Shown here: piece after piece, positions 481-12,677 of the stretch | How the letters are laid out: each line of letters starts with the position of its first letter | Numbering within the stretch: the stretch's first letter is position 1 | UHGV virus genome: UHGV-1672213 | DNA: 12,748 nt | Reading direction: 5' to 3' (one strand) | DNA from: a virus | The notes under the pieces: model-generated | What the model was told of the DNA's origin: nothing | Seen by the model: only the letters and a program-made list of their open reading frames with translations | Databases searched by the model: none | Position numbers and translations under genes: made by a program

Positions 481-1041
481 TCAGGAAGGAAGGGTTATTT
501 CGGTGTGATGTTCGATATCGCCGTCAGGCCCGTTACCGGGATCGAGATAATCGACATCAATCGCCAGCGTTTGCAGTTCATCCAGACTGTTCAGATCATC
601 CTGCTGGCGGGTATCGTCTTCAGTCAGCTCGCTGATGACCGAAAAATCGAACTGATAAATCAGCTCATGACGATTCAGATCCAGCAGCGTGCCGCCGTCA
701 TAGGTAATCGGGTTACCGCACGCTTCCGGGTTCCAGCCCAGCAGGGCCTTAAAGAGCATCTGCCGGACATCGTCCACCACATCATACGAGGCAAACTGAC
801 CGCGCTCATCACGCCCGTTACTCAGTATGACAACCACGGAGAAGCCCTCTTTCAGCTCCTGCCAGTAGTCGGTCTGGCTTTTGTTTTCTCCCGGAGAGTC
901 ATCACCCGGTACCACATACGCCGCCGGGAGTCTCAGCTTTCCGACCTCCGGCAGATTTTTGAACTGTGCCGCGCCTGCCACCCGGTTTTCAAAATACGGA
1001 CAGCGGGCACGCAGCGCAGCAATAACAGGCGTCAGTTTCAT
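481..1041 (-). CDS. Phage structural protein (186 aa), possibly tail completion/terminator type; acidic C-terminus
   Basis: ATG at 1039-1041 overlaps the upstream stop (ATGA); tight packing within the structural operon. Position after the gp10-like gene suggests a neck/tail role; specific family uncertain. Confidence 0.55.
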   Translation of the reverse strand: MKLTPVIAALRARCPYFENRVAGAAQFKNLPEVGKLRLPAAYVVPGDDSPGENKSQTDYWQELKEGFSVVVILSNGRDERGQFASYDVVDDVRQMLFKALLGWNPEACGNPITYDGGTLLDLNRHELIYQFDFSVISELTEDDTRQQDDLNSLDELQTLAIDVDYLDPGNGPDGDIEHHTEITLPS

Positions 1042-1544
1042 CTGTGTCGTCGCTCCGGCTTCAGTGATTTACGCAATTCCCGCGCCAGAAAATAGCGTGT
1101 CCAGCTGCGGTTCTTTTCAAGCGCTTCCACCATGAAGTTATTACGTGGAGCCAGTCGCCAGCCGCTGCCACCGGATGCACCACGATGATGACTACGACGA
1201 CGTTTTGCTCCTCCCCGGACACCAAAAAACAGAAACGCCGGATAGAAGTCACCAGAGATCATCCGGTTCCCCTTCCCGTTGCGCTGGTTAGGGGCAATGC
1301 GTGTCATAAAACCGGCTCGCTTTTTACTGGCTCTCGGCACCATATAACCAATCGAACGAGCCAGGCGTCCGGTCTGATAACCGGGGTTTTCACCCGGTGC
1401 CGACCGCGCACGGCGCATCACCAGCCGACGGGCATCACGCATATGACGCTGCCCAATCGTGACAAACGCCCGCCGGACACGGGCGCGGTTAAAGCGCATC
1501 TCGGCGGGCTGCTGAACATCAACGTGAAAAAAGGGAGTCGCCAT
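1038..1544 (-). CDS. HK97 gp10-family head-tail joining protein
   Basis: ATG at 1542-1544 with SD GGAGG 5 nt upstream; basic Arg-rich 168 aa protein; position after the head closure gene. Confidence 0.65.
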   Translation of the reverse strand: MATPFFHVDVQQPAEMRFNRARVRRAFVTIGQRHMRDARRLVMRRARSAPGENPGYQTGRLARSIGYMVPRASKKRAGFMTRIAPNQRNGKGNRMISGDFYPAFLFFGVRGGAKRRRSHHRGASGGSGWRLAPRNNFMVEALEKNRSWTRYFLARELRKSLKPERRHR

Positions 1545-1929
1545 TGCTGCCTCCGTGACTCTGCCTACATTCGCCCAGCTCCGTACACTCCAGCAGCAGA
1601 AAGCGCCGCGCCCCGTTCAGATCACGCTGACGTTTCACCCGGTACACACTGTCATCACAGACCACCTCATAATCAGCGGTGATCCCCCGGCGGTAACGAA
1701 TGGTGATGTAATGGGTGATGGCGTCCCCGGTCTGCGCGGTTTCCTGCCAGGTGGTGGCACTGGTCTGGATAACCTTCGCCCATGTCCGGAACGTAACCGG
1801 GTATTGAGGCTCCACGCCAAAGTTATCCGCGGGCATATCCACCCGCAGGCGGATCAGGACGCGTTTATTCAGTTCACCGGGGTCCGGCAGAATGTAGGTT
1901 GCGCTGGTCTGCGCCTGACGAATTTTCAT
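1519..1929 (-). CDS. Phage head closure / head-tail adaptor protein
   Basis: ATG at 1927-1929 overlaps the connector stop (ATGA); C-terminal LLLECTEL-type motif typical of this family; 136 aa. The 3' end overlaps the next gene by 26 nt. Confidence 0.65.
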   Translation of the reverse strand: MKIRQAQTSATYILPDPGELNKRVLIRLRVDMPADNFGVEPQYPVTFRTWAKVIQTSATTWQETAQTGDAITHYITIRYRRGITADYEVVCDDSVYRVKRQRDLNGARRFLLLECTELGECRQSHGGSNGDSLFSR

Positions 1930-2249
1930 TGCGGAAAGTACCTGTACGGGCCGACAAGCCAGCCAAAACTCTGCGGCATGTCGAGTTTCTCCACTTCCGT
2001 AACCGACGAGCGGTTTTCGTAAAAATGGCTGATAAGCATCAGCATCCCCAGACGAATATCATCCGGCAGGTGCAGCCCGTCCGGATCGCTCTCCGGAATG
2101 GTTTCATCCGGTGCATAGAGCTTCCGGTTCAGATACGTTTCCGTCCGCTTTTGCGCCGCACAGGCCAGCAGTTGCAGATGGCGGTCATCAGCATCGAAAT
2201 CCTCATCCAGCCGGAGTTGGGCTTTAATCTCTTCCATTGTCAGAAGCAT
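1926..2249 (-). CDS. gp6-like head-tail connector protein
   Basis: ATG at 2247-2249 with SD AGAGGG 6 nt upstream; N-terminus MLLTMEEIKAQLRLDEDFD typical of gp6-like connector proteins; 107 aa. Confidence 0.7.
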   Translation of the reverse strand: MLLTMEEIKAQLRLDEDFDADDRHLQLLACAAQKRTETYLNRKLYAPDETIPESDPDGLHLPDDIRLGMLMLISHFYENRSSVTEVEKLDMPQSFGWLVGPYRYFPQ

Positions 2250-2251
2250 AC

Positions 2252-2452
2252 TCAGCCCTCTTTACTGGTCGTGGCTTTTTTCTCTTTTGCCGCTTTACTG
2301 CTTTTTGCACTGGTTCCGCGCTCTGCTAACCCGGCCTGAAGTGCAATCTCCTGCACCCGGGCAGGAAGCGCCCCGTCGTCATACTCACCGGCCCGAATGA
2401 CCTCAACACGCATACCGTCCGGTGACCATTTCAGATCTTGTTTCAGGATCAT
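2252..2452 (-). CDS. Hypothetical small protein (66 aa), Lys/Ser-rich C-terminus
   Basis: ATG at 2450-2452; stop TGA at 2252-2254 immediately precedes the SD of the connector gene; sits between capsid and connector genes. Confidence 0.45.
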   Translation of the reverse strand: MILKQDLKWSPDGMRVEVIRAGEYDDGALPARVQEIALQAGLAERGTSAKSSKAAKEKKATTSKEG

Positions 2453-2473
2453 GATTCTTCACCCGTCAGAACA

Positions 2474-2495
2474 GGGGGCGCGGTTCCGCGCCCCT
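2474..2495 (-). promoter_or_regulatory. GC-rich stem-loop 8 nt downstream of the major capsid stop
   Basis: Palindrome GGGGCGC-GGTTCC-GCGCCCC (7-bp all-GC stem). No U-tract follows on the minus strand, so it is not a canonical intrinsic terminator. Confidence 0.5.
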
Positions 2496-2501
2496 GAGTG
2501 A

Positions 2502-3707
2502 TTACGCCGCTGCAATCTTCAGCAGTTTGATGGCCTGCGAATCGACCAGCATCCCGCCGGTGCGCTTGGTGGTATAAAAACCGACAAACGGTTTATTGGT
2601 GTACGGGTCACGCAGAATGCGGGTGCCGATACGGTCAACGATGGTGTAACCCCGTTTGAAGTTACCAAATGCAATGGCTTTCGCATCAGCGGCGATATCC
2701 GGCATCTGTTCGTTTTCAGCGATACCGTAACCCGCCAGAGAGGACGGCTGCCCCAGTTCCAGCCCCGGACGCCACAGATAGTTACCCTCGGTGTCTTTCA
2801 GCAGACGGATGGCAAACAGGCTGTTGTTGTTCATCATGAACTTCGCGCCAGTGCGGTGTGCCTTACGCAGCGTGTAAATCAGTTTGATAATGGCGTCTGC
2901 GGTCACCGCAGTCGCGTCGCCGGATACAATATGCTGAAGTTTGCCGAACGCCCGGACCTTATCGGTTTCATCAGTGGATTCATACGCCAGGAACCCTTTC
3001 GGCTTCTTGGTGCCATCGCCTGAGGTAAAGGCAATTTCTTCCTGTTCGGCAAATTCGGTTGCCAGCTCGCTGTTGATCCAGGCCTCCACGTTGAAAAAGG
3101 CATCGTCCAGCATTTTCTGGGTGGCCTGCGGGTTACCGTAGATTTCCCCCATGAGAGGTTCAATCAGCTCCAGTCTGGAGGTGGCAGTCTGGGATCGCGT
3201 ATCCGTTTCCCCCACCCATCCGGAAGCCGTACCGCCCAGATTCACCAGTTTTTTGTAGTCGGAACCGCCAACGGTGATCACCGTGGCTTCCTGACGCATC
3301 ACCACTTCATCTTTAAGCAGGTTGAGAATGTTGCGATCCAGCGCTTCCGGCACGGCGTAGCCACCGTCTTCATCGGTACCCACCTGCAATGCCTTACGCT
3401 CCAGATCGCGCAGACCGTCTTCACGGCCTTTACGCAGGAAGCCCACAAACGCCTCTTTATGCTCGGTGGCCAGTTTATTTTGCGCTCCACCTGCCGGACG
3501 TTTCAGCTCAAGCAGCTCTTTTTCAAGGTCGCTTTTGAGATTTTCCAGCTCGCTGAGTTTCCCGTTCAGGGTTTCCACCTGCCCGGCAAGCTTGCCTTTT
3601 TCCTGCTCAATCGCATCCACGCGCTTGTCGTTCTTTGCTTTGAAGTCGTCAAACTTCTGCTGCAGCTCCTGCGCGACCTGTTCGACATCTTTAATATCAA
3701 CCGCCAT
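2502..3707 (-). CDS. Major capsid protein, HK97 family, with N-terminal coiled-coil delta (scaffold) domain
   Basis: ATG at 3705-3707 with SD AGGAG 7 nt upstream; 401 aa; N-terminal ~100 aa coiled-coil (KLSELENLKSDLEKELLELK) followed by an HK97-type capsid fold region. Confidence 0.9.
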   Translation of the reverse strand: MAVDIKDVEQVAQELQQKFDDFKAKNDKRVDAIEQEKGKLAGQVETLNGKLSELENLKSDLEKELLELKRPAGGAQNKLATEHKEAFVGFLRKGREDGLRDLERKALQVGTDEDGGYAVPEALDRNILNLLKDEVVMRQEATVITVGGSDYKKLVNLGGTASGWVGETDTRSQTATSRLELIEPLMGEIYGNPQATQKMLDDAFFNVEAWINSELATEFAEQEEIAFTSGDGTKKPKGFLAYESTDETDKVRAFGKLQHIVSGDATAVTADAIIKLIYTLRKAHRTGAKFMMNNNSLFAIRLLKDTEGNYLWRPGLELGQPSSLAGYGIAENEQMPDIAADAKAIAFGNFKRGYTIVDRIGTRILRDPYTNKPFVGFYTTKRTGGMLVDSQAIKLLKIAAA

Positions 3708-3721
3708 CGTATTTCTCCTGA

Positions 3722-4372
3722 TTAGAAGTTCAGATTTTTCAGTGCATTCAGTGCAGAGCCCACATCCTCAGCGTCGCGCAGGGACAGTGCGCCATAGCCC
3801 CCGGCCATGAATGCTTTGGCCTGGGTACGGGAGAGTCCGACATCACGCAGGACTCTTTCGATTTTTTTCTGTTCGGGGATTTCCCCGCGGGCCAGCGCGT
3901 TCTTGACGTCGCTGATCCGCGCCTCGTCGTTAGATGGAAACGTCACCAGACTGACTTCCCAGAGGTCGATTTCTTTCAGCAGAAAGGCTTCTTTCGTCCG
4001 GTCGTATTCCCAGTCCTTCAGGACGTACCCAATAGAAAGGCCGGTTAACGAACCGGCCTTCATGTGTGCATGTGCGCGTTTTGCCAGGGGATCATCATCA
4101 ATGAGCAACCGTCCCCTGACGTAAAGCCCGACATCGTCTTCCTTCATTTCGGTGTAAACACCGATGGGTTCATCCATGCGGTGCTGCCAGAGCAGCGCAG
4201 GTAACGCTTTTCTGTCACTCCACGCCCGCAGGGAAGCAGCAAATGCCCCGGACATCACCACATCATCGTGGCTGTCCTTTACACCAAAGACGGAGCCATA
4301 CCCTTCAAACTCACCGGAGTCACTGACAGATTTCAGACTCAGCGGTACATCAAGACGTTGTTTCGTCTGCAT
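3722..4372 (-). CDS. Prohead maturation protease, HK97 family
   Basis: Motif EFEGYGSVFGVKDSHDDVVMSGAF typical of HK97 prohead proteases. Start reassigned to ATG 4370-4372 (MQTKQ..., SD AAGGA 8 nt upstream); the track start at 4408 lacks an SD and overlaps portal by 59 nt. Confidence 0.8.
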   Translation of the reverse strand: MQTKQRLDVPLSLKSVSDSGEFEGYGSVFGVKDSHDDVVMSGAFAASLRAWSDRKALPALLWQHRMDEPIGVYTEMKEDDVGLYVRGRLLIDDDPLAKRAHAHMKAGSLTGLSIGYVLKDWEYDRTKEAFLLKEIDLWEVSLVTFPSNDEARISDVKNALARGEIPEQKKIERVLRDVGLSRTQAKAFMAGGYGALSLRDAEDVGSALNALKNLNF

Positions 4373-5591
4373 TGGCGTTATCCTTCTGCTTACCGGCTTT
4401 ACTGCCATCGGAGGGTTTCGTGGTCATGTTCATCGGTGTGAGATAGACATCCCCACCGGGACGCGGATTCATATCTTCCAGGTCGCGGCAGTCATTGGGA
4501 GAGTAAATTCCCCAGTTAATCCCGGTGGCGTAGGCTTCAAAACGGGACTTCATATCCCCGCGCAGTAACGCCCCGGCGTTAAATTTGGCGTAATAAACGC
4601 CCTGCTTACTTTTTCGTACCAGTCCGGTGTTGATCCGCTGCTCAATGCGGGTCAGATACGGCACCAGTGAATAGTTGATAAATCCCAGCCCCAGTTCTTC
4701 GATATTGTTGAAGGTGGCGCGATCGGTGTTCTGCACCATGTGCAATGGCACACGGAACAGACGACAGATTTCTTCAAGCTGAAACTTGCGGGTTTCCAGG
4801 AACTGGCTGTCCTCGGCGTTCAGCGCCATCGACTTCCAGTCCAGCCCCATCTCAAGGATCATCGGGCGGTGAGCATTACCAAGCCCGGTGTGACGCTCCT
4901 CAAAATCTTTCTTCAGACGCTCATAAGCCTGATCCGACAGCGTCTGCTCTGTACGCAACACACCGGACGTCACCGCACCATTGCTGAACAGTCTGGCCCC
5001 GTGCTCTTCGGTCGCAGCTGCCAGCGATATTGCCTCGCGGGCATAGGCGATGGGATTCAGTCCCACCAGACCGTCCAGCGTCAGCGTGCGCACATGCCAG
5101 ATATCTTCCTGGCTCAGTACATCCGTGGAGCCGTCCGGGAATGTGACCTGGTAAACCGGTTCCCAGCTACTGTTAAGCTTCGGTACCACACAACCTGGGT
5201 CGACGGGCAGCAGTTCAGCCACTTCGCCAAATGCTTTCACTTTGTAGGCGTAAAAGTTTCCCCGCAGGCACAGACAGGTGACCACCAGCTCCCAGAACTC
5301 CTGCGGCGTCATATAGCCATTGGGATGCGTGGAGATCAGCTTATGCAGACGTTCGCCGGTGGCTCTCTGTTTCAGGCTGCCGTTCAGGTGATACAGGTTG
5401 CAGGGCAACATCCCGACCGACTCCGCCAGCACCCTGACGCAGGAAAAAACCGCCGTCAGTCGCATGGCCCGCTGGCTGCTGATCTGCTTTCCGGTATAGG
5501 TGTCATATGACAGCCCGATAGCATCCGCCAGCTCTGCTGGCGTGGTCACCGGTGCGTCACTTTTTCGTTGAAATAATCCCGAAAAGAACAC
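4350..5591 (-). CDS. Portal protein, HK97 family
   Basis: 413 aa; GTG start at 5589-5591 preceded by SD GGAGGT (5-nt spacer); position between terminase and protease. Confidence 0.88.
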   Translation of the reverse strand: MFFSGLFQRKSDAPVTTPAELADAIGLSYDTYTGKQISSQRAMRLTAVFSCVRVLAESVGMLPCNLYHLNGSLKQRATGERLHKLISTHPNGYMTPQEFWELVVTCLCLRGNFYAYKVKAFGEVAELLPVDPGCVVPKLNSSWEPVYQVTFPDGSTDVLSQEDIWHVRTLTLDGLVGLNPIAYAREAISLAAATEEHGARLFSNGAVTSGVLRTEQTLSDQAYERLKKDFEERHTGLGNAHRPMILEMGLDWKSMALNAEDSQFLETRKFQLEEICRLFRVPLHMVQNTDRATFNNIEELGLGFINYSLVPYLTRIEQRINTGLVRKSKQGVYYAKFNAGALLRGDMKSRFEAYATGINWGIYSPNDCRDLEDMNPRPGGDVYLTPMNMTTKPSDGSKAGKQKDNANADETTS

Positions 5592-5773
5592 TATTTACCT
5601 CCGCCGACAGACGGCTGTGTACGGTCGAGATATCGCGCCACCAGCCACGACCAGAACAGGCACAGCGCCCCGGCAACAACAAACCCCGCCGGGGGATAAA
5701 TCAGCCAGGCACCATACGCCAGCAAAAGCGCACCCAGCACGCCCACCAGAGGCGCGAGAATCAGCATGATCAT
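5591..5773 (-). CDS. Small hydrophobic membrane protein (60 aa, two predicted TM helices)
   Basis: ATG at 5771-5773 with SD GAGGT; begins 9 nt after the TerL stop and its stop overlaps the portal start by 1 nt. Both hydrophobic stretches are long enough to span a membrane. Confidence 0.5.
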
Positions 5774-5784
5774 AATTACCTCAG

Positions 5785-7518
5785 TTAAAGCGAGCGGATC
5801 CCGTAGGACTCAATGTGATCAGACAGCGTGTCTTCTTTCTCGTACAGCATGGCTCTGCCAACCGCCATAATCAGCGCAACTGCACCATCAATTTTGTTTT
5901 CCGCCTGCTCCTTGACGGGCTTCACCACATCATCGTTACCCGGAATGGTTTTGCCGACCACGTTGCCGATACACCAGGTCATGATGGGATTGCCGTCATG
6001 ATGAAAACGCCCCGATTCAATTGCCGCTTCCAGCTCTTTCATCGGGTCGGACATGTTGGTGTAGTTCTGAATGATGGTGATGGGGTTCAGGTCTTCATCC
6101 GCAAGGTCATGCGACAGCCCGGTCGCCCCGAAGGGGTCGATGGGTGACTCACTGACCGGGCTGATTTTGTTCGCCGCTTTGGCCTCCTCGAGGATGTAGC
6201 GATAATCCACCTCCGCACCATCGGTAACGGTCAGAACGCCCATTTCCACCCATTTCTGAAAGCGCTCGGCTGTCCGGCGATCTTCATTTTTCTCGACGCT
6301 GTACACCGTGTCATACGGTACCCAGAAGCGCGGAGCCACACTGTAGTAATGCGTTTTACCGTCAATCTCGCGGGTATAAAGTCGCGCCATGCTGTTCATA
6401 TCCAGCTTACGCGCCAGGTCAAAGGCCAGAATGCACGGCTGCCCCTCGAACTGCTCAAGGGTCAGTGATTTATCCTCGCAGCTCTGCCAGCTCACCAGGT
6501 TGAAATACGCCGAACGCGCCGACACCCAGATATTGAGGTGTTTTGTTTTAAAGACGTTTGCCAGACGGGCGTTATTTTTCGCACGCTGCTGCTGACTTAA
6601 CAAAAATTCGCGATAAACCGACACGCCAATATTTGGATTGGCTTTTTCCAGCACCTGCGGGTCGGTCCAGTCGTCACCTTCATCAACGGTATAGATGATC
6701 CCGAACAGTTCATCGTTAGGCACCGAGCCGTTGAGCATCTCGATGACTTCCCGCCGCTTGTCGTAGCACGGCCCCTCAATGTTGTACCCGGCAGTAGTAA
6801 TGGCCCACATCAGTGGCTGACGTCGCGCCCCCATCCCGGTAAGCATCGTGGTGTAAAGCGCATCGGTGGCGTGCTCGTGATATTCATCCACCACCGCACA
6901 GTGGGGTGATGAACCATCACCGGGGTTACCGATCAGCGGTTCAAACCGCGCGCCATCCTCCGGACGATTCATGTTTGAGGCGTTAACCTCAATCCCGAAC
7001 GCTTCCGTCAGCATGGGTGTGCGTTTACACATCAGTCTTGCCGGACGAAAGACTTCCCATGCCTGTTTCTCTGTCGTGGCACCGGAATACACTTCCGCGC
7101 CAAACTCGTTATCACAGGCAAAACAATACAGGGCAACACCGGCAGAGATTGCCGATTTGCCGTTCTTACGGGGAATTTCGGTATACACCTCCCGGAAGCG
7201 GCGCAACCGGGTGCCTTTATTGACCCAGCCAAACGCACAGCAGATCACAAATAGCTGCCACGGCTCCAGCGTGATGGGCATCCGTTTAAATGCCCACTCA
7301 CCCTTGGTGTGCGGCAACAGCTGAATAAATTTCGCGGCCCGTTCAGCCAGGTCCTTGTCGAAGCGGTAACGAAACGACTTACTTTTTTCCTCCATCAGGT
7401 CATCAAGATGGCGCTGGCAGGCCTGAATCACAAACTGGCAGGCCACAATCTTTCCGCGCACGACATCACGGGCATACTGATTGGCAGCATTTACGTTGGG
7501 GTAAGATTTCCGGCTCAT
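5785..7518 (-). CDS. Terminase large subunit
   Basis: 577 aa; ATG at 7516-7518 overlaps the TerS stop (ATGA); Walker A-like GKS in [10 protein letters not shown], ATPase and nuclease domains consistent with HK97-type terminases. Confidence 0.93.
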
Positions 7519-8009
7519 GATTCGATGATTTTCAGAAACGGGTTAGTGGCTTTCTTCTGCCCCGCCAGGCCAATCAGACGCTGGCGGCTGCTGGGGTCGA
7601 GTCCGAGCATTGCCCCCGTACTGCTCATCTCGGACTCCTGTTCTTTTTTGGCGGTCAGCTCCGGATTTTTGACCATACCGCCCATTGCACCGGTGATGGT
7701 GTTGCCCTGTCTGGCAATATTTTTCACGGCACGTCGCCAGAACTCGTAGGCCACGCACCACCGCTCAAGCACCGCGAGGTCAGTCACGCACAGCAGACCC
7801 TGACCGCAGAGTTCTTTAGTTGTCAGTTGCCACATGATCGTAGCGAGAGGGAGATCTTCTTCAGCGAACCACTCCGGTGGCTCAACACCTTTGATGGGCG
7901 TAAAAACAGGTTCATCTTTATTCAGGGCTCGCTTGCCGGGGTTTCCGGCCAGCGCCTTGCGCGCCGTTGGCTTGGGGCGACGCCCGGAACGCCCCGCCGT
8001 TCCAGCCAT
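7515..8009 (-). CDS. Terminase small subunit, P27 family
   Basis: Start reassigned to ATG 8007-8009 ([14 protein letters not shown]..., SD AGGAG 8 nt upstream); the track start at 8018 is a GTG. Basic N-terminus and position next to TerL. Confidence 0.82.
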
Positions 8010-8018
8010 ATGCGGCAC

Positions 8019-8134: not shown

Positions 8135-8485
8135 TTACTTCAACCGTTCACGGGCCGTCTTCGCCTTATGACACGGCCAGCACAGACTCTGCAGATTACT
8201 GTCGGCATCAGTGCCGCCATGTGCTTTAGGGATGATGTGGTCAACGGTTTTCGCCTCACGCACCACACCGGCACGCAAACACAACTGACACAGGCCTTTG
8301 TCACGCTTGAGCGCACGTTCACGGATAACATCCCATTTCGAACCATAACCGCGCTGGTGTCTGGACTGGCCCGGCTTGTATTGCTTCCAGCCTTCACTTT
8401 TGTGGCTTTCGCAATAGCCTGACGGGTCAGTTGTGGTATGGCGGCAGCCGCGAACACGGCAGGCTTTTGGGGTTCGTGGTGGCAT
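8135..8485 (-). CDS. HNH homing-type endonuclease (terminase-associated)
   Basis: Cys pairs CRVRGC/CESH and HNH core DHIIPKAHGG...N...LCWPCH. Start reassigned to ATG 8483-8485 (MPPRTPKACR..., SD GGAG 5 nt upstream); the track start at 8554 has no SD and would overlap the upstream terminator. Confidence 0.85.
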   Translation of the reverse strand: MPPRTPKACRVRGCRHTTTDPSGYCESHKSEGWKQYKPGQSRHQRGYGSKWDVIRERALKRDKGLCQLCLRAGVVREAKTVDHIIPKAHGGTDADSNLQSLCWPCHKAKTARERLK

Positions 8486-8492
8486 GCTGGCT

Positions 8493-8520
8493 CCAATAAA
8501 AAGCCCCGCGACGCGAGGCT
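8493..8520 (-). terminator. Intrinsic terminator closing the AT-rich cargo island
   Basis: Minus-strand RNA stem AGCCUC/GGGGCU (one G-U pair) with 7-nt loop, followed by UUUUUAUU; lies between the 67-aa gene stop (8551) and the HNH start. Confidence 0.5.
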
Positions 8521-8550
8521 TAGACAGAAAAAACACCGGATAAGATCTGG

Positions 8551-8754
8551 TCATTCTTCCTTTTTAATAATGACTTCTCGAGGGCGCAATTGTTGGATAG
8601 CACGACAAATACAATATGGAATAACTGCCCATGCTACTCCCATTGCTGCACCTGCAGCCTGTTGTGGAGCACTCTGAGCACCGAAAACCCCGAGGATTCC
8701 TTCAATAAATCCAATAGCACTACACAAAAGACTGATGACCCAGAGAATTTTCAT
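8551..8754 (-). CDS. Small membrane protein (67 aa, two predicted TM segments, basic C-terminus)
   Basis: ATG at 8752-8754 with consensus SD AAGGAG 9 nt upstream; sample stretch 8701-8760 counts about 35% GC versus about 63% in a structural-gene stretch; followed by its own terminator. Confidence 0.6.
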   Translation of the reverse strand: MKILWVISLLCSAIGFIEGILGVFGAQSAPQQAAGAAMGVAWAVIPYCICRAIQQLRPREVIIKKEE

Positions 8755-9284: not shown

Positions 9285-9728
9285 CTAATATGAACACTGT
9301 GATCTCACATATTCTTGCAGGCCATTCAATTGGTTAGTTATGGTTTCGATGCGCTCTCTGAGAACGAAATAATCCCGTTGAGCGGTGTCAGTAAGTCTGG
9401 GGCTGGAAGCATCATCCACGCCGGAGGCGGCGGTGGTTTTATGCTTGTCCGGACAGACTGCTTTGACGTGCAGCCACTTACGACCAGCAGAAACATCAGC
9501 ACGAAGACTTTCGATAGTCGCGTTAGCATCAGCAAGCTCCTTTGTGTATCTGGCGTCGAGTTCTGCTACATCACGTTGACGCTTCTGCATATCAGCGATG
9601 ATGGATGTGGCTTTATCGCGCTGTTCTTTGTAGGTAATGGCGTTATCACGGTAATGATTAACAGCCCATGACAGGCAGACGATGATGCAGATAACAAGAG
9701 CGGAGATAATCGCGGTGACTCTGCTCAT
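9285..9728 (-). CDS. Rz: i-spanin Rz
   Basis: N-terminus [34 protein letters not shown] matches lambda Rz from memory; TM anchor plus coiled-coil; ATG overlaps the R stop (ATGA). Confidence 0.9.
9338..9529 (-). CDS. Rz1: o-spanin Rz1 lipoprotein, embedded in Rz in the +1 frame
   Basis: Lipobox LLVVSGC, proline run PPPPPAW and LNGIIS as in lambda Rz1. Start placed at ATG 9527-9529 (SD AAGGAG 7 nt upstream); the track start at 9535 is a TTG. Confidence 0.8.
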
Positions 9729-10201
9729 GCCTCAATCTCTCTTACCGTTCCGCCAGCTTCTTTGAATTTTGCAATCAGGCTGTCAGCCTTATGCTCGAAC
9801 TGACCGTAACCAGCCCCCGGCAGTGAAGCCCAGATATTGCTGCAACGGTCGATAGCCTGACGAATATCGCCGCGATCAATCATTGGTAAAGCGCCACGCT
9901 CTTTAATCTGCTGCAGCGCAACAGCATCCTGGCTTTTCGGAGAGAAGTCTTTCAGGCCAAGCTGCTTACGGTAGGCATCCCACCAACGGGAAAGAAGCTG
10001 GTAGCGTCCGGCGGCTGTTGATTTGAGTTTGGGGTTTAGCGTGACAAGTTTGCGAGGGTGATCGGAGTAATCAGTGAATAGCTCTCCGCCAACAATGACG
10101 TCATAACCATGATTTCTGGTTTTCTGCCGTCCGTTATCCGTTCCTTCTGACCATGCCACCATATCGAGGAAAGCCTTACGCTGAGGATTAAGATTTTGCA
10201 T
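9725..10201 (-). CDS. R: Endolysin, lambda R-type lytic transglycosylase
   Basis: 158 aa, near-identical by recall to lambda R ([54 protein letters not shown]...), including the catalytic Glu in WSEGT. Confidence 0.95.
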
Positions 10202-10505
10202 TTTTCACCCCTGTCAGTCGTTCCCAGAAGTACGTCAGTGCAACCGAACCCATCGCACCACTAATCCCCGCTGTCGCGAGAATCATGTAAATACTGAATC
10301 CACTTTCGATGCTGATCAGGCCACCAATAACACCGGTGAATCCTGATACCACTATCTGAGCCAGAGCATTTATCCAACTCCACGTTGCTTTACTCTGCTT
10401 CACATCTATCAGGTAGCGGACCAGACCGCCCCAACCTGCGATGATCAGCAAAACGAGCCAGAACGCTCCGGCAAGGCTCTCTTTTTCGTGCATATGAATA
10501 GCCAA
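10188..10505 (-). CDS. Putative holin (3 predicted TM helices), not lambda S-like
   Basis: Immediately upstream of R; 101-105 aa with three hydrophobic segments and a charged C-terminus. Start ambiguous: TTG at 10503-10505 or ATG at 10491-10493, neither with a strong SD. Confidence 0.7.
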   Translation of the reverse strand: MAIHMHEKESLAGAFWLVLLIIAGWGGLVRYLIDVKQSKATWSWINALAQIVVSGFTGVIGGLISIESGFSIYMILATAGISGAMGSVALTYFWERLTGVKNAKS

Positions 10506-11479: not shown

Positions 11480-11508
11480 AATATAAGCGTTTCAGTTCGG
11501 TTTTGCAA
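11480..11508 (-). promoter_or_regulatory. PR'-like sigma70 late promoter (putative Q engagement region)
   Basis: Minus strand: -35 TTGCAA (11503-11508), 17-nt spacer, -10 TATATT (11480-11485). The -35 overlaps the last Q codons; the predicted start is about 50-75 nt upstream of the tR'-like terminator, matching lambdoid PR'-qut-tR' layout. Confidence 0.45.
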
Positions 11509-12181
11509 GACTTACGTGCAAACTTGTCGCCTTTTGTTGTGAACGTGATCGCGTTACTGAGATAAGCGCACCGCTATCGAGTCGCATAAAGCAGCTACGC
11601 ATTGCCAACCAGTGAGGCAGGTATGTCTCTGTCCAGGTGGATTTCGCCACGCCAACCAGTTCCGCCAGCTTCTGGTATTCGTAGGCATCTTTCCCGACCA
11701 ACCCTGCTTTGACATCCTGCGCTGCCAGCCATATCAGCTTCTTCAGGCGCTCCATGGTCTTGCCTGCCACCCTCTTCGCGCCGAGATACCCCCTGAATTC
11801 AGACCACGCCCACTGGGTGATCGCCACCTGGTATTCAAAGCTGATGTTTTCACTGTAACTCCACAGCAACCACGCTTTCTGATGTTCTTCGAGAGACAGA
11901 ACCGCGCGGCGCCATGAAGATGTTGAGAACTCAACCTGGCTGACCAGTGCAATGGATGAACCTTTTGCGTACGACTGCTTACCGGAAATCGGCGGATTAT
12001 CCAGCGTAATCATCTTGCCCGTTACCTCATCCAGAATGCGCGGCTTCTTTCGTTTATATGTACCAGTATCAAATTGTGCATGCTCCAGCCAGGCTTCAAG
12101 CTGGCCTTTCGTTGCTCCGCTCAAATCAGCAGTAGCCACAATGAGTTGCTCGCGGACATACTGTAAATATTGGGTATTCAT
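11492..12181 (-). CDS. Putative late-gene antiterminator Q (non-lambda type)
   Basis: 229 aa; ATG overlaps the ylcG stop; sits between rusA-ylcG and the lysis genes, the canonical Q position, and is followed by a promoter and terminator. Sequence family not confirmed. Confidence 0.65.
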   Translation of the reverse strand: MNTQYLQYVREQLIVATADLSGATKGQLEAWLEHAQFDTGTYKRKKPRILDEVTGKMITLDNPPISGKQSYAKGSSIALVSQVEFSTSSWRRAVLSLEEHQKAWLLWSYSENISFEYQVAITQWAWSEFRGYLGAKRVAGKTMERLKKLIWLAAQDVKAGLVGKDAYEYQKLAELVGVAKSTWTETYLPHWLAMRSCFMRLDSGALISVTRSRSQQKATSLHVSLAKPN

Positions 12182-12318
12182 GCGGCAGCTCCTTTCAGTG
12201 TTTTGGCGTAATTCTTCAGTATCCGGTAATCGGTCAAAACAGAACCGGGGAAACGATATAAGCGCAGGCGCATCCAGCGGTGGCGAAGACGTTCTGCCAT
12301 ATAAGACTCAAACATCAT
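12178..12318 (-). CDS. ylcG: YlcG-like small protein (46 aa)
   Basis: Translation [46 protein letters not shown]; start overlaps the rusA stop and stop overlaps the Q start (both ATGA); same position as ylcG in the DLP12 nin region. Missed by the ORF track on size. Confidence 0.7.
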
Positions 12319-12677
12319 TCATTCCCCAGTTCGGTGATGGTCAGCTCCAGCTTCCCACCTTTGGTAACGGGCATCTTCACAACGCGGTAATCAACGACCT
12401 GAGCATCATCCAGCCAGAAACCTGCTTTGGTGAGTGCGTCAAAAGAGGCTTTTTGTAGATTATCCAGGTCACGGCGACGGCGATCCGGCATGTGGCACTC
12501 AATGCGGATTTTCACAGGCATAGCCAGACCGATATCCAGCATTGAGCCTTTAATGATTCGGGCGACGTTATCGCGGTATGCCTGCCCTTCTGCGCTGATG
12601 TGCGTGCGCCCTCGATTATGGCGGTAGTAGCGGTTATTGCTCGGCGGCCAGGGTAGTGTGATGTGGTAAGTATTCAC
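12315..12677 (-). CDS. rusA: Holliday junction resolvase RusA
   Basis: 120 aa, near-identical by recall to E. coli RusA ([36 protein letters not shown]...[10 protein letters not shown]...); GTG start at 12675-12677 overlaps the upstream stop (GTGA). Confidence 0.93.

Follow-up and report, generated by a model that had tools for sequence, protein, structure and literature searches.

Among the small accessory proteins that bind HK97-fold phage shells are SPP1 gp12, phi29 gp8.5, lambda gpD, and T4 Soc; in phi29 the capsid gene is immediately followed by the head-fiber gene, whose product anchors a projecting shaft through its N-terminal part. Lambda gpFI is an assembly chaperone and not a structural protein; it is small, carries two modules on an acidic flexible linker, and is dispensable in related phages. 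Here we analyze a gene of similar position in a stretch of 12,748 nucleotides from the virus genome UHGV-1672213 (hereafter the window), where an open reading frame (ORF) for a protein of 66 amino acids (aa) lies between the genes for the major capsid protein and a gp6-like head-tail adaptor (Table 1). An earlier note, made from the sequence alone, had placed an uncharacterized small gene at exactly these coordinates (2252–2452), between capsid and connector; it gave no strand, which we find to be minus. According to a passage of PMC4493119 that cites Popovic 2012, gpFI facilitates the interaction of the DNA-terminase complex with procapsids, and an interaction with the major head protein has been suggested.

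The likeness to the lambda locus begins with gene order. In both, the capsid gene (E in lambda) is followed by a GC-rich hairpin, a Shine-Dalgarno (SD) site, the small gene (FI in lambda; PF14000 Packaging_FI, phrog_92), and then the first neck gene (FII in lambda). The two products also have a logic in common, combining a folded module, an acidic linker, and a nucleic-acid-type module with dispensability. They differ in size (66 aa is half of the 132 aa of gpFI), in the second module, which in the window protein is a polybasic peptide only, and in polarity, the folded conserved module being N-terminal in the window protein whereas the head-binding module of gpFI is reportedly C-terminal. Homology, which the slot and a superficial "...GLA" C-terminus might suggest, was considered and rejected: PF14000 did not match the window protein (positive control lambda FI, 4.8e-59), hhalign of the family profile against lambda FI gave a probability of 0.3%, and the window protein did not match the fold of the gpFI head-binding domain. 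Lambda FI itself carries a weak, sub-threshold SAP-like motif. We regard the resemblance as analogy, not homology, and rate the 66-aa protein as an FI-slot accessory of different descent with the layout reversed. Our preferred reading, given a probability of roughly 35%, is that the protein may serve as a capsid-docked DNA tether that aids packaging or head completion, much like gpFI.

The Gene and Its Genomic Slot

By itself, the ORF does not stand above chance, because the window contains 96 ORFs of at least 40 aa. It is a genuine late-operon gene of an SfIV/ST64B-type prophage because of the combined weight of a database match, purifying selection, intact reading frames, and a fixed slot. 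The window region shares 98.9% identity with Shigella phage SfIV and ~90% with Salmonella phage ST64B, in which the ORF corresponds to Sb7. PHROG 1020, a family of unknown function, matched the entire protein (E 1.5e-44, 151 bits; residues 1–66 against profile positions 1–66 of 66), and neither Pfam (cut-off E ≤ 1) nor NCBIfam holds a family for it. Pairwise ratios of nonsynonymous to synonymous substitution (dN/dS), computed over the first 46 codons of eight diverged loci, ranged from 0.13 to 0.43, with synonymous sites often saturated. The ORF was intact in 80 of 80 IMG/VR loci, which are nearly identical and so informative on its integrity, not on its diversity.

The gene is common and has received little attention. 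Among 5426 complete E. coli genomes, 1042 carry it, under the PGAP label "hypothetical protein," and profile searches returned ~140 clusters from Enterobacterales, Endozoicomonas, Achromobacter, Bordetella, and Pseudomonadales, none of them named. Both SfIV records leave the ORF unannotated and all others call it a "hypothetical protein." A gene found in about one-fifth of complete E. coli genomes, in Shigella serotype-converting prophages, and in Salmonella prophages is therefore known only as hypothetical or not at all. A literature search found no study of Sb7, of PHROG 1020, or of the HeH slot proteins described below, nor a virion proteome; PHROG 1020/Sb7 is catalogued yet uncharacterized, with no paper, structure, or curated family found.

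The slot is fixed. All 10 phage contexts examined have the gene flanked by the adaptor gene on one side and, on the other, by a PF05065 capsid gene that follows an S78 protease gene. These contexts comprise the myoviruses ST64B and YeP1, the siphoviruses phi467 and Klebsiella ST101-KPC2phi6.3 (hereafter the Klebsiella phage), four metagenomic contigs, and two prophages, one in Bordetella avium and one, with a P2-type baseplate, in Endozoicomonas, so that the slot is conserved across beta- and gammaproteobacteria and two tail types. The placement between capsid and connector given in the earlier note is thus borne out by PF05065 and PF05135 neighbors, and the comparison across HK97-like genomes that it proposed, now carried out, found the gene in all 10 of these contexts, an empty slot in phiP27 and HK97, and a probable homolog with a HeH domain in phage VW-6S. 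In eight of the 10 loci (the window, ST64B, the Klebsiella phage, and the loci L086, L090, L091, L094, and L095) the stop codon overlaps the adaptor start or lies at most 2 nt from it, which suggests translational coupling; in the window the TGA is 2 nt ahead of the adaptor ATG. The SD-like site of the window has stronger counterparts at the same place in relatives, GGAGG in the Klebsiella phage and GAGGTG in YeP1 and L091. Neither a frameshift nor read-through could fuse the product to the capsid protein, because an in-frame TGA lies 9 nt 5′ of the ATG and the capsid gene uses another frame.

Between the capsid stop codon and the gene, a GC-rich hairpin recurs at the same position in all 10 related loci, with differing stem sequences, and a hairpin also lies directly 3′ of the capsid stop in lambda (E-hairpin-FI), HK97 (gp5-hairpin-gp6), and phiP27. 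A T-run follows it in YeP1, L091, L094, and HK97; the window has none, and its hairpin is therefore not a canonical terminator. The hairpin belongs to the architecture of the operon and is separate from the protein; it is probably an attenuator or an mRNA 3′-end stabilizer that raises capsid output relative to the downstream neck genes. A structured RNA in place of the gene was rejected although the local hairpin position is conserved, since the region had no Rfam match and an ordinary folding energy (z −0.70).

Domain Architecture and Mosaic Inheritance

Members of the family are tripartite, with a conserved N-domain of ~45 aa, a variable disordered spacer, and a polybasic C-terminal tip. Among 27 members, P11, G13, G22, and R32 of the N-domain are invariant, and W9, S10, P30, I36, and A37 are at least 90% conserved. 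An AlphaFold2 (AF2) run on 27 sequences gave a predicted local distance difference test score (pLDDT) of ~86 over residues 1–40, with strands at residues 7–9 and 17–19 and a helix at residues 31–39. The predicted layout is a β-hairpin with a W-S-P-D-G turn, a second turn at G22-E23-Y24, and a helix motif that runs from L29-P30-x-R32 to G41. Residues 46–66 scored a pLDDT of 40–50, and no secondary structure was predicted for them. This run is the structure model used throughout, a run on 6 sequences (pLDDT 57) having been discarded. One cluster, P0106, was dropped from the family as a probable false positive (weak match, Wzy_C context, and no Trp); it was still a row in the alignment behind the model.

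No chain in the PDB was related to the protein by sequence, the family profile included, and a fold search with the N-domain model gave no significant match. The W-S-P-D-G turn is common to WD40/PD40 β-propellers, and multi-repeat propeller proteins were drawn into the profile search, but their matches span ~10–20 residues of one hairpin, and the window family has a single hairpin and no propeller. A propeller relationship was rejected as motif-level convergence or chance, there being no Pfam repeat match and the WSPDG turn alone matching. The DNA-binding families HeH/LEM and SAP (PF12949, PF02037) likewise had no match in the window protein, for which a single helix is predicted.

No Pfam domain was detected in the tails of the family. 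Spacers are usually acidic or proline-rich, highly variable in length, predicted to be disordered, and of low complexity, with PEPEPEPE, QPEQPEQPE, and PVVTD repeats, EAK-rich segments, and long Pro/Ala/Gly/Glu stretches. At or near the C-terminus stands a basic tip in variants such as KK[SGA]KK, TKRGKTK, NKRGEGK, and GRRRNR, and in the window KEKKATTSK. Over 92 non-redundant tails of 16–81 aa, the mean net charge of the last 12 residues was +2.84, compared with 0.07 ± 0.17 in shuffled tails, and none of 1000 shuffles reached +2.84; the spacers of these tails had a median charge of −3.5 and a minimum of −10. In the window, the tail holds 6 K, 4 S, 4 A, and 3 T (net +4, pI 10.0), the first 45 residues are acidic (pI 4.8), and the whole protein is mildly basic (net +2, pI 9.1). 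A highly basic, Lys/Ser-rich tail, as initially described, is accurate for this allele, which is the shortest-spacer form of the spacer-plus-basic-tip design, and does not extend to the family, where a variable spacer with a basic tip is the rule.

An A6 run on the coding strand (2276..2281) lies within the tail part of the ORF. Clusters P0008, P0012, P0016, and P0020, from E. coli, E. albertii, and Salmonella, have tails of the form ...EKKPRPVKRAEYASDNGRD, the exact outcome of a 1-nt loss in this run, which gives a basic 75-aa product that crosses the adaptor start. Such tails could be sequencing errors or real slippage variants.

Recurrent mosaic joints fall inside the ORF, at ~2367..2400 (codons ~18–30). 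The DNA of the window and phi467 is 93–100% identical from the capsid gene to ~2400 and at most 60% identical beyond, that of L090 is 100% identical to the window down to ~2385, and in ~200 complete E. coli genomes the match is confined to positions from 2379 upward, a phi467-type junction. Because the joints fall within the ORF, its first ~25–30 codons are inherited as one block with the capsid gene. Identity over residues 1–26 also tracked capsid and portal identity (rho 0.76) more closely than adaptor identity (rho 0.60), a comparison that is weak evidence because locus pairs are not independent. The tail, in turn, is exchanged independently and is tied to neither neighboring gene: L090 and L091 are 87–100% identical over helix and tail, with 90% identity in the tail and 68% in the adaptor, whereas L090 and the Klebsiella phage, whose adaptor is the closest match (85% aa identity), have tails that are 41% identical. 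A tail that can be swapped so freely argues for a generic ligand, such as a polyanion, and not for a specific protein partner.

Slot Occupants in Other Phages and Possible Roles of the Protein

The head genes of HK97 and phiP27 are ordered as in the window, running from terminase through portal, S78 protease, PF05065 capsid, and hairpin to the gp6-like adaptor. Compared with the window, phiP27 has 88% identity in the capsid protein and 70% in the adaptor, and between these two genes it has only a 46-nt hairpin spacer and no slot gene; in HK97 the adaptor gene comes immediately after the capsid hairpin, and the small ORF is absent. Because so similar a capsid occurs without the gene, the genome comparison marks the slot protein as facultative, an optional add-on to capsids of this type, and speaks against its being an essential cement or assembly factor. 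PHROG 1020 is a facultative accessory of one HK97-type head-module lineage. In other HK97-type phages the slot is empty or filled with unrelated unknown proteins; in Azospirillum phage Cd and a Desulfofustis phage it holds the unrelated unknown protein phrog_5707.

The most informative occupant is that of Pseudomonas phage VW-6S, whose capsid protein is 62.6% identical to the window's and whose 137-aa slot protein is encoded by a gene that overlaps the adaptor gene start. Residues 4–45 of this protein are colinear with the family N-domain (hhalign 68% with the single sequence, E 4.7e-5; 53% for its N-terminus against the family with profiles, E 1.4e-4). In a local hidden Markov model test of the same N-terminus, 4 of 20,000 shuffles reached the median real score, and the motifs in common are the aromatic-S-x-D-G turn, the G-E turn, [SP]-x-R, and LG[IV]. 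From these similarities we judge the N-domains of VW-6S and PHROG 1020 to be probably homologous. The window protein had no match to phrog_1539, the family of the VW-6S protein. Past the N-domain the two differ, the VW-6S protein having an additional segment in the middle and a folded HeH/LEM domain (PF12949, residues 101–135, 32.6 bits against a gathering score of 28.9) and the window protein a polybasic tip instead. HeH/LEM/SAP motifs are, at the level of the superfamily, DNA-binding. If the N-domains are homologous, the basic tip has been exchanged for a HeH domain, which would indicate DNA as the ligand of the tail. The PHROGs label of phrog_1539, "Arc-like repressor," looks doubtful.

A further slot protein, the 54-aa product of Burkholderia phage vB_E264 that ends in KKPATAKK, is alike in architecture and was rejected as a relative at a similarity too weak to count (probability 9.7%). 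The VW-6S and vB_E264 proteins may belong to a wider slot-protein superfamily.

As a DNA tether, the protein would dock through its mini-domain on the capsid shell, whether procapsid or head, and its flexible tail would offer a generic polyanion-binding tip to DNA. Such a tether, itself non-essential, could help to recruit DNA or the DNA-terminase complex to the shell, or to keep it there, while packaging or head completion proceeds. The facultative presence of the gene, with phiP27 and HK97 lacking it, is as expected for a helper, and a stoichiometric cement role is not expected. The suggestion in the earlier note that the protein is head-associated holds insofar as the gene is a member of the head module and its 5′ part is co-inherited with the capsid gene; it is not supported as stated in the sense of a virion component, the closest positional analog, gpFI, being an assembly chaperone. 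DNA binding, one of three roles which that note had offered, gains indirect support from the conserved polybasic tip and from the HeH/LEM domain of the probable VW-6S homolog, and stabilization, another of them, loses support in the sense of an essential cement on the evidence of phiP27. Decoration, the third, is neither favored nor contradicted.

Several considerations weigh against a tether. The putative binding of the N-domain to the capsid leans on co-inheritance, which can follow from adjacency alone and can also be explained by recombination that resolves where DNA similarity ends. The apparent link to the HeH protein has moderate scores (53–68% probability), and an acidic spacer beside DNA is not obviously favorable. 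Lipopolysaccharide (LPS), membranes, or an acidic patch on a protein would be equally plausible ligands of the basic tip. A neck protein of 12 copies would also be compatible with the tight translational coupling to the adaptor gene, and the capsid appears from its sequence to be without the HK97 cross-link residues, which leaves room for a stabilizing protein.

Were the tether model true, the gene would represent a second, unrelated solution to the poorly understood packaging step served by gpFI, its ~45-aa N-domain would be a very small capsid-docking module with swappable ends that could be used for capsid display, and a recurrent unannotated slot in HK97-type head modules would gain a functional label. 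We can also imagine, more tentatively, that PHROG 1020, the VW-6S-type HeH proteins, and possibly the Burkholderia KKPATAKK proteins form a widespread, unrecognized class of capsid-anchored DNA tethers, each with a ~45-aa docking domain and interchangeable DNA-binding ends, in which the job of gpFI evolved independently. A packaging chaperone in the capsid-adaptor slot would then be a general modular feature of HK97-type phages and not a peculiarity of lambda.

It is possible, though on balance we doubt it, that the N-domain instead sits on the outside of the capsid as a surface decoration or whisker, with the tip binding anionic cell-surface polymers or the domain stabilizing an uncross-linked shell. 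The gene adjoins the capsid gene and is co-inherited with it, as a decoration gene might be, and post-capsid decoration or head-fiber genes are known elsewhere (SPP1 gp12, phi29 gp8.5). The spacers, with their PEPEPE, QPEQPE, and PVVTD repeats and EAK-rich helices, resemble rigid or extended surface spacers, and tail length varies freely, from 16 to 81 aa, as in exposed regions. The cross-link residues of HK97 gp5 are replaced in the window and three relatives (K169 to R, N356 to F; provisional, from an alignment of 22% identity), and the window capsid is predicted to be probably without chain-mail cross-links. A stabilizing role is possible given these replacements, but phiP27, which builds its capsid without the gene, shows that it is not obligatory and that the protein is no required cement. 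Known decoration and cement families (gpD, Soc, Dec, gp12-like) had no sequence, family, or fold similarity to the window protein, whose gene differs from theirs in lying 3′ of the post-capsid hairpin, grouped with low-copy neck genes, and the DNA-binding HeH domain of the VW-6S relative would make little sense outside a capsid. If it did decorate the virion, the protein would be among the smallest decoration proteins known.

That same position 3′ of the hairpin, among the neck genes, together with the overlapping or nearly abutting stop and start codons in eight of 10 loci, would suit a portal-vertex factor for head completion, present at low copy with the adaptor (12), whose tip contacts the end of the packaged DNA and retains it before the tail joins; a DNA-binding tip or HeH domain would fit there as well. 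We nevertheless find this unlikely. The tail recombines independently of the adaptor (L090 compared with L091 and the Klebsiella phage), N-domain identity follows the capsid protein more than the adaptor, HK97 and phiP27 complete their heads with homologous adaptors and no slot protein, and spacers of up to ~70 residues would be hard to fit in a neck.

Basic C-terminal peptides on flexible linkers load HK97-fold shells in encapsulin cargo and in the tail of the HK97 protease. With its conserved basic C-terminal tip, the 66-aa protein might by the same means be an encapsidated internal protein, targeted to the procapsid interior by the peptide or by the N-domain and there binding the genome or being ejected with it. 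This seems improbable to us: strongly acidic spacers (median −3.5, to −10) would be unfavorable in a DNA-filled head, the gene is facultative, and no shared docking motif is visible because the window protease, ending in ...ALNALKNLNF, has no comparable basic tip.

A function unrelated to the particle, as a nucleic-acid-binding regulator of late genes or a host-directed factor riding in the late operon, is more improbable again. It might be read from the "Arc-like repressor" label given to the HeH relative of VW-6S, and the slot does tolerate insertions, because unrelated unknown proteins such as phrog_5707 occupy it elsewhere. The exact slot, however, is kept in all 10 contexts, which span two classes of Proteobacteria and two tail types, and the predicted β-hairpin with one helix is not the ribbon-helix-helix of Arc. 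No promoter-like site was found in 1800..3900 and no terminator after the ORF, and its GC content (54.7%) is that of its neighbors (54–55%). A moron, with its own promoter and terminator and atypical composition, was rejected on these same findings. Finally, a chance ORF without translation, to which its shortness and its absence from both SfIV annotations might point, is effectively refuted by dN/dS of 0.13–0.43 with synonymous sites saturated between distant members, motifs kept down to ~35% identity, the PHROG match, the SD sites, and the 80 intact IMG/VR loci.

Neighboring Genes and the Remainder of the Window

On the coding strand the genes run in the order terminases, 60-aa ORF, portal, protease, capsid, 66-aa ORF, and adaptor (Table 1). 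The closest solved capsid to that of the window is that of the Rhodobacter gene transfer agent RcGTA (6TB9, E 7.6e-76).

Table 1. Positions of the 66-aa ORF, its parts and signals, the surrounding head genes, and slot proteins of two other phages.
Feature	Position	Strand	Basis or remark
66-aa ORF (ST64B Sb7 equivalent; PHROG 1020)	2252..2452	minus	ATG 2452..2450, TGA 2254..2252; translation MILKQDLKWSPDGMRVEVIRAGEYDDGALPARVQEIALQAGLAERGTSAKSSKAAKEKKATTSKEG
N-terminal mini-domain, codons 1–45	2318..2452	minus	alignment and AF2
Disordered tail, codons 46–66 (GTSAKSSKAAKEKKATTSKEG), short spacer and polybasic cluster	2255..2317	minus	AF2 and charge test
Peptides of the predicted 66-aa product			DLKWSPDGMR, AGEYDDGALPAR, VQEIALQAGLAER
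Shine-Dalgarno-like site GGGTGAAG	2457..2464	minus	4 nt 5′ of the ATG of the 66-aa ORF
GC-rich hairpin GGGGCGCG-GAAC-CGCGCCCC, between capsid stop and 66-aa ORF	2475..2494	minus	8-bp stem, minimum free energy and centroid folds
Tail terminator-like protein	481..1041	minus	
gp10-like protein	1038..1544	minus	
Head closure	1519..1929	minus	PF05521
gp6-like head-tail adaptor (Ad1)	1926..2249	minus	PF05135, E 5.7e-10; phrog_40
Major capsid protein, HK97 fold with N-terminal coiled-coil delta domain	2502..3707	minus	PF05065, E 1.5e-78
S78 prohead protease	3722..4408	minus	
Portal	4350..5591	minus	
60-aa hydrophobic ORF	5591..5773	minus	
Large terminase	5785..7518	minus	
Small terminase	7515..8018	minus	
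VW-6S (Pseudomonas phage) "HeH/LEM domain protein," ATN93598.1, 137 aa	L097 3048..3461		phrog_1539
vB_E264 (Burkholderia phage) slot protein, 54 aa, ends KKPATAKK	L098 3048..3212		phrog_20183

The protease ORF, as delimited by the ORF finder, overlaps the 3′ end of the portal gene by 59 nt; the overlap is only 14–29 nt in related contigs, and the true start is therefore probably an internal Met. The 60-aa ORF between large terminase and portal had no family match; its product is strongly hydrophobic, with what look like two membrane-spanning segments. Genes of equal size occupy that position in ST64B (Sb3), phi467, the Klebsiella phage, YeP1, L090, and L091, and not in the Bordetella or Endozoicomonas relatives, nor in HK97.

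The rest of the window (8135..8554, 9285..10505, and 11492..12677, minus strand) was assigned from translations only and has ordinary lambdoid late-region content. An HNH endonuclease gene adjoins the small terminase gene, a holin, lysozyme, and Rz cassette includes an embedded, Rz1-like lipoprotein ORF (9338..9535), and a Q-like antiterminator candidate and a RusA-like resolvase are also encoded.

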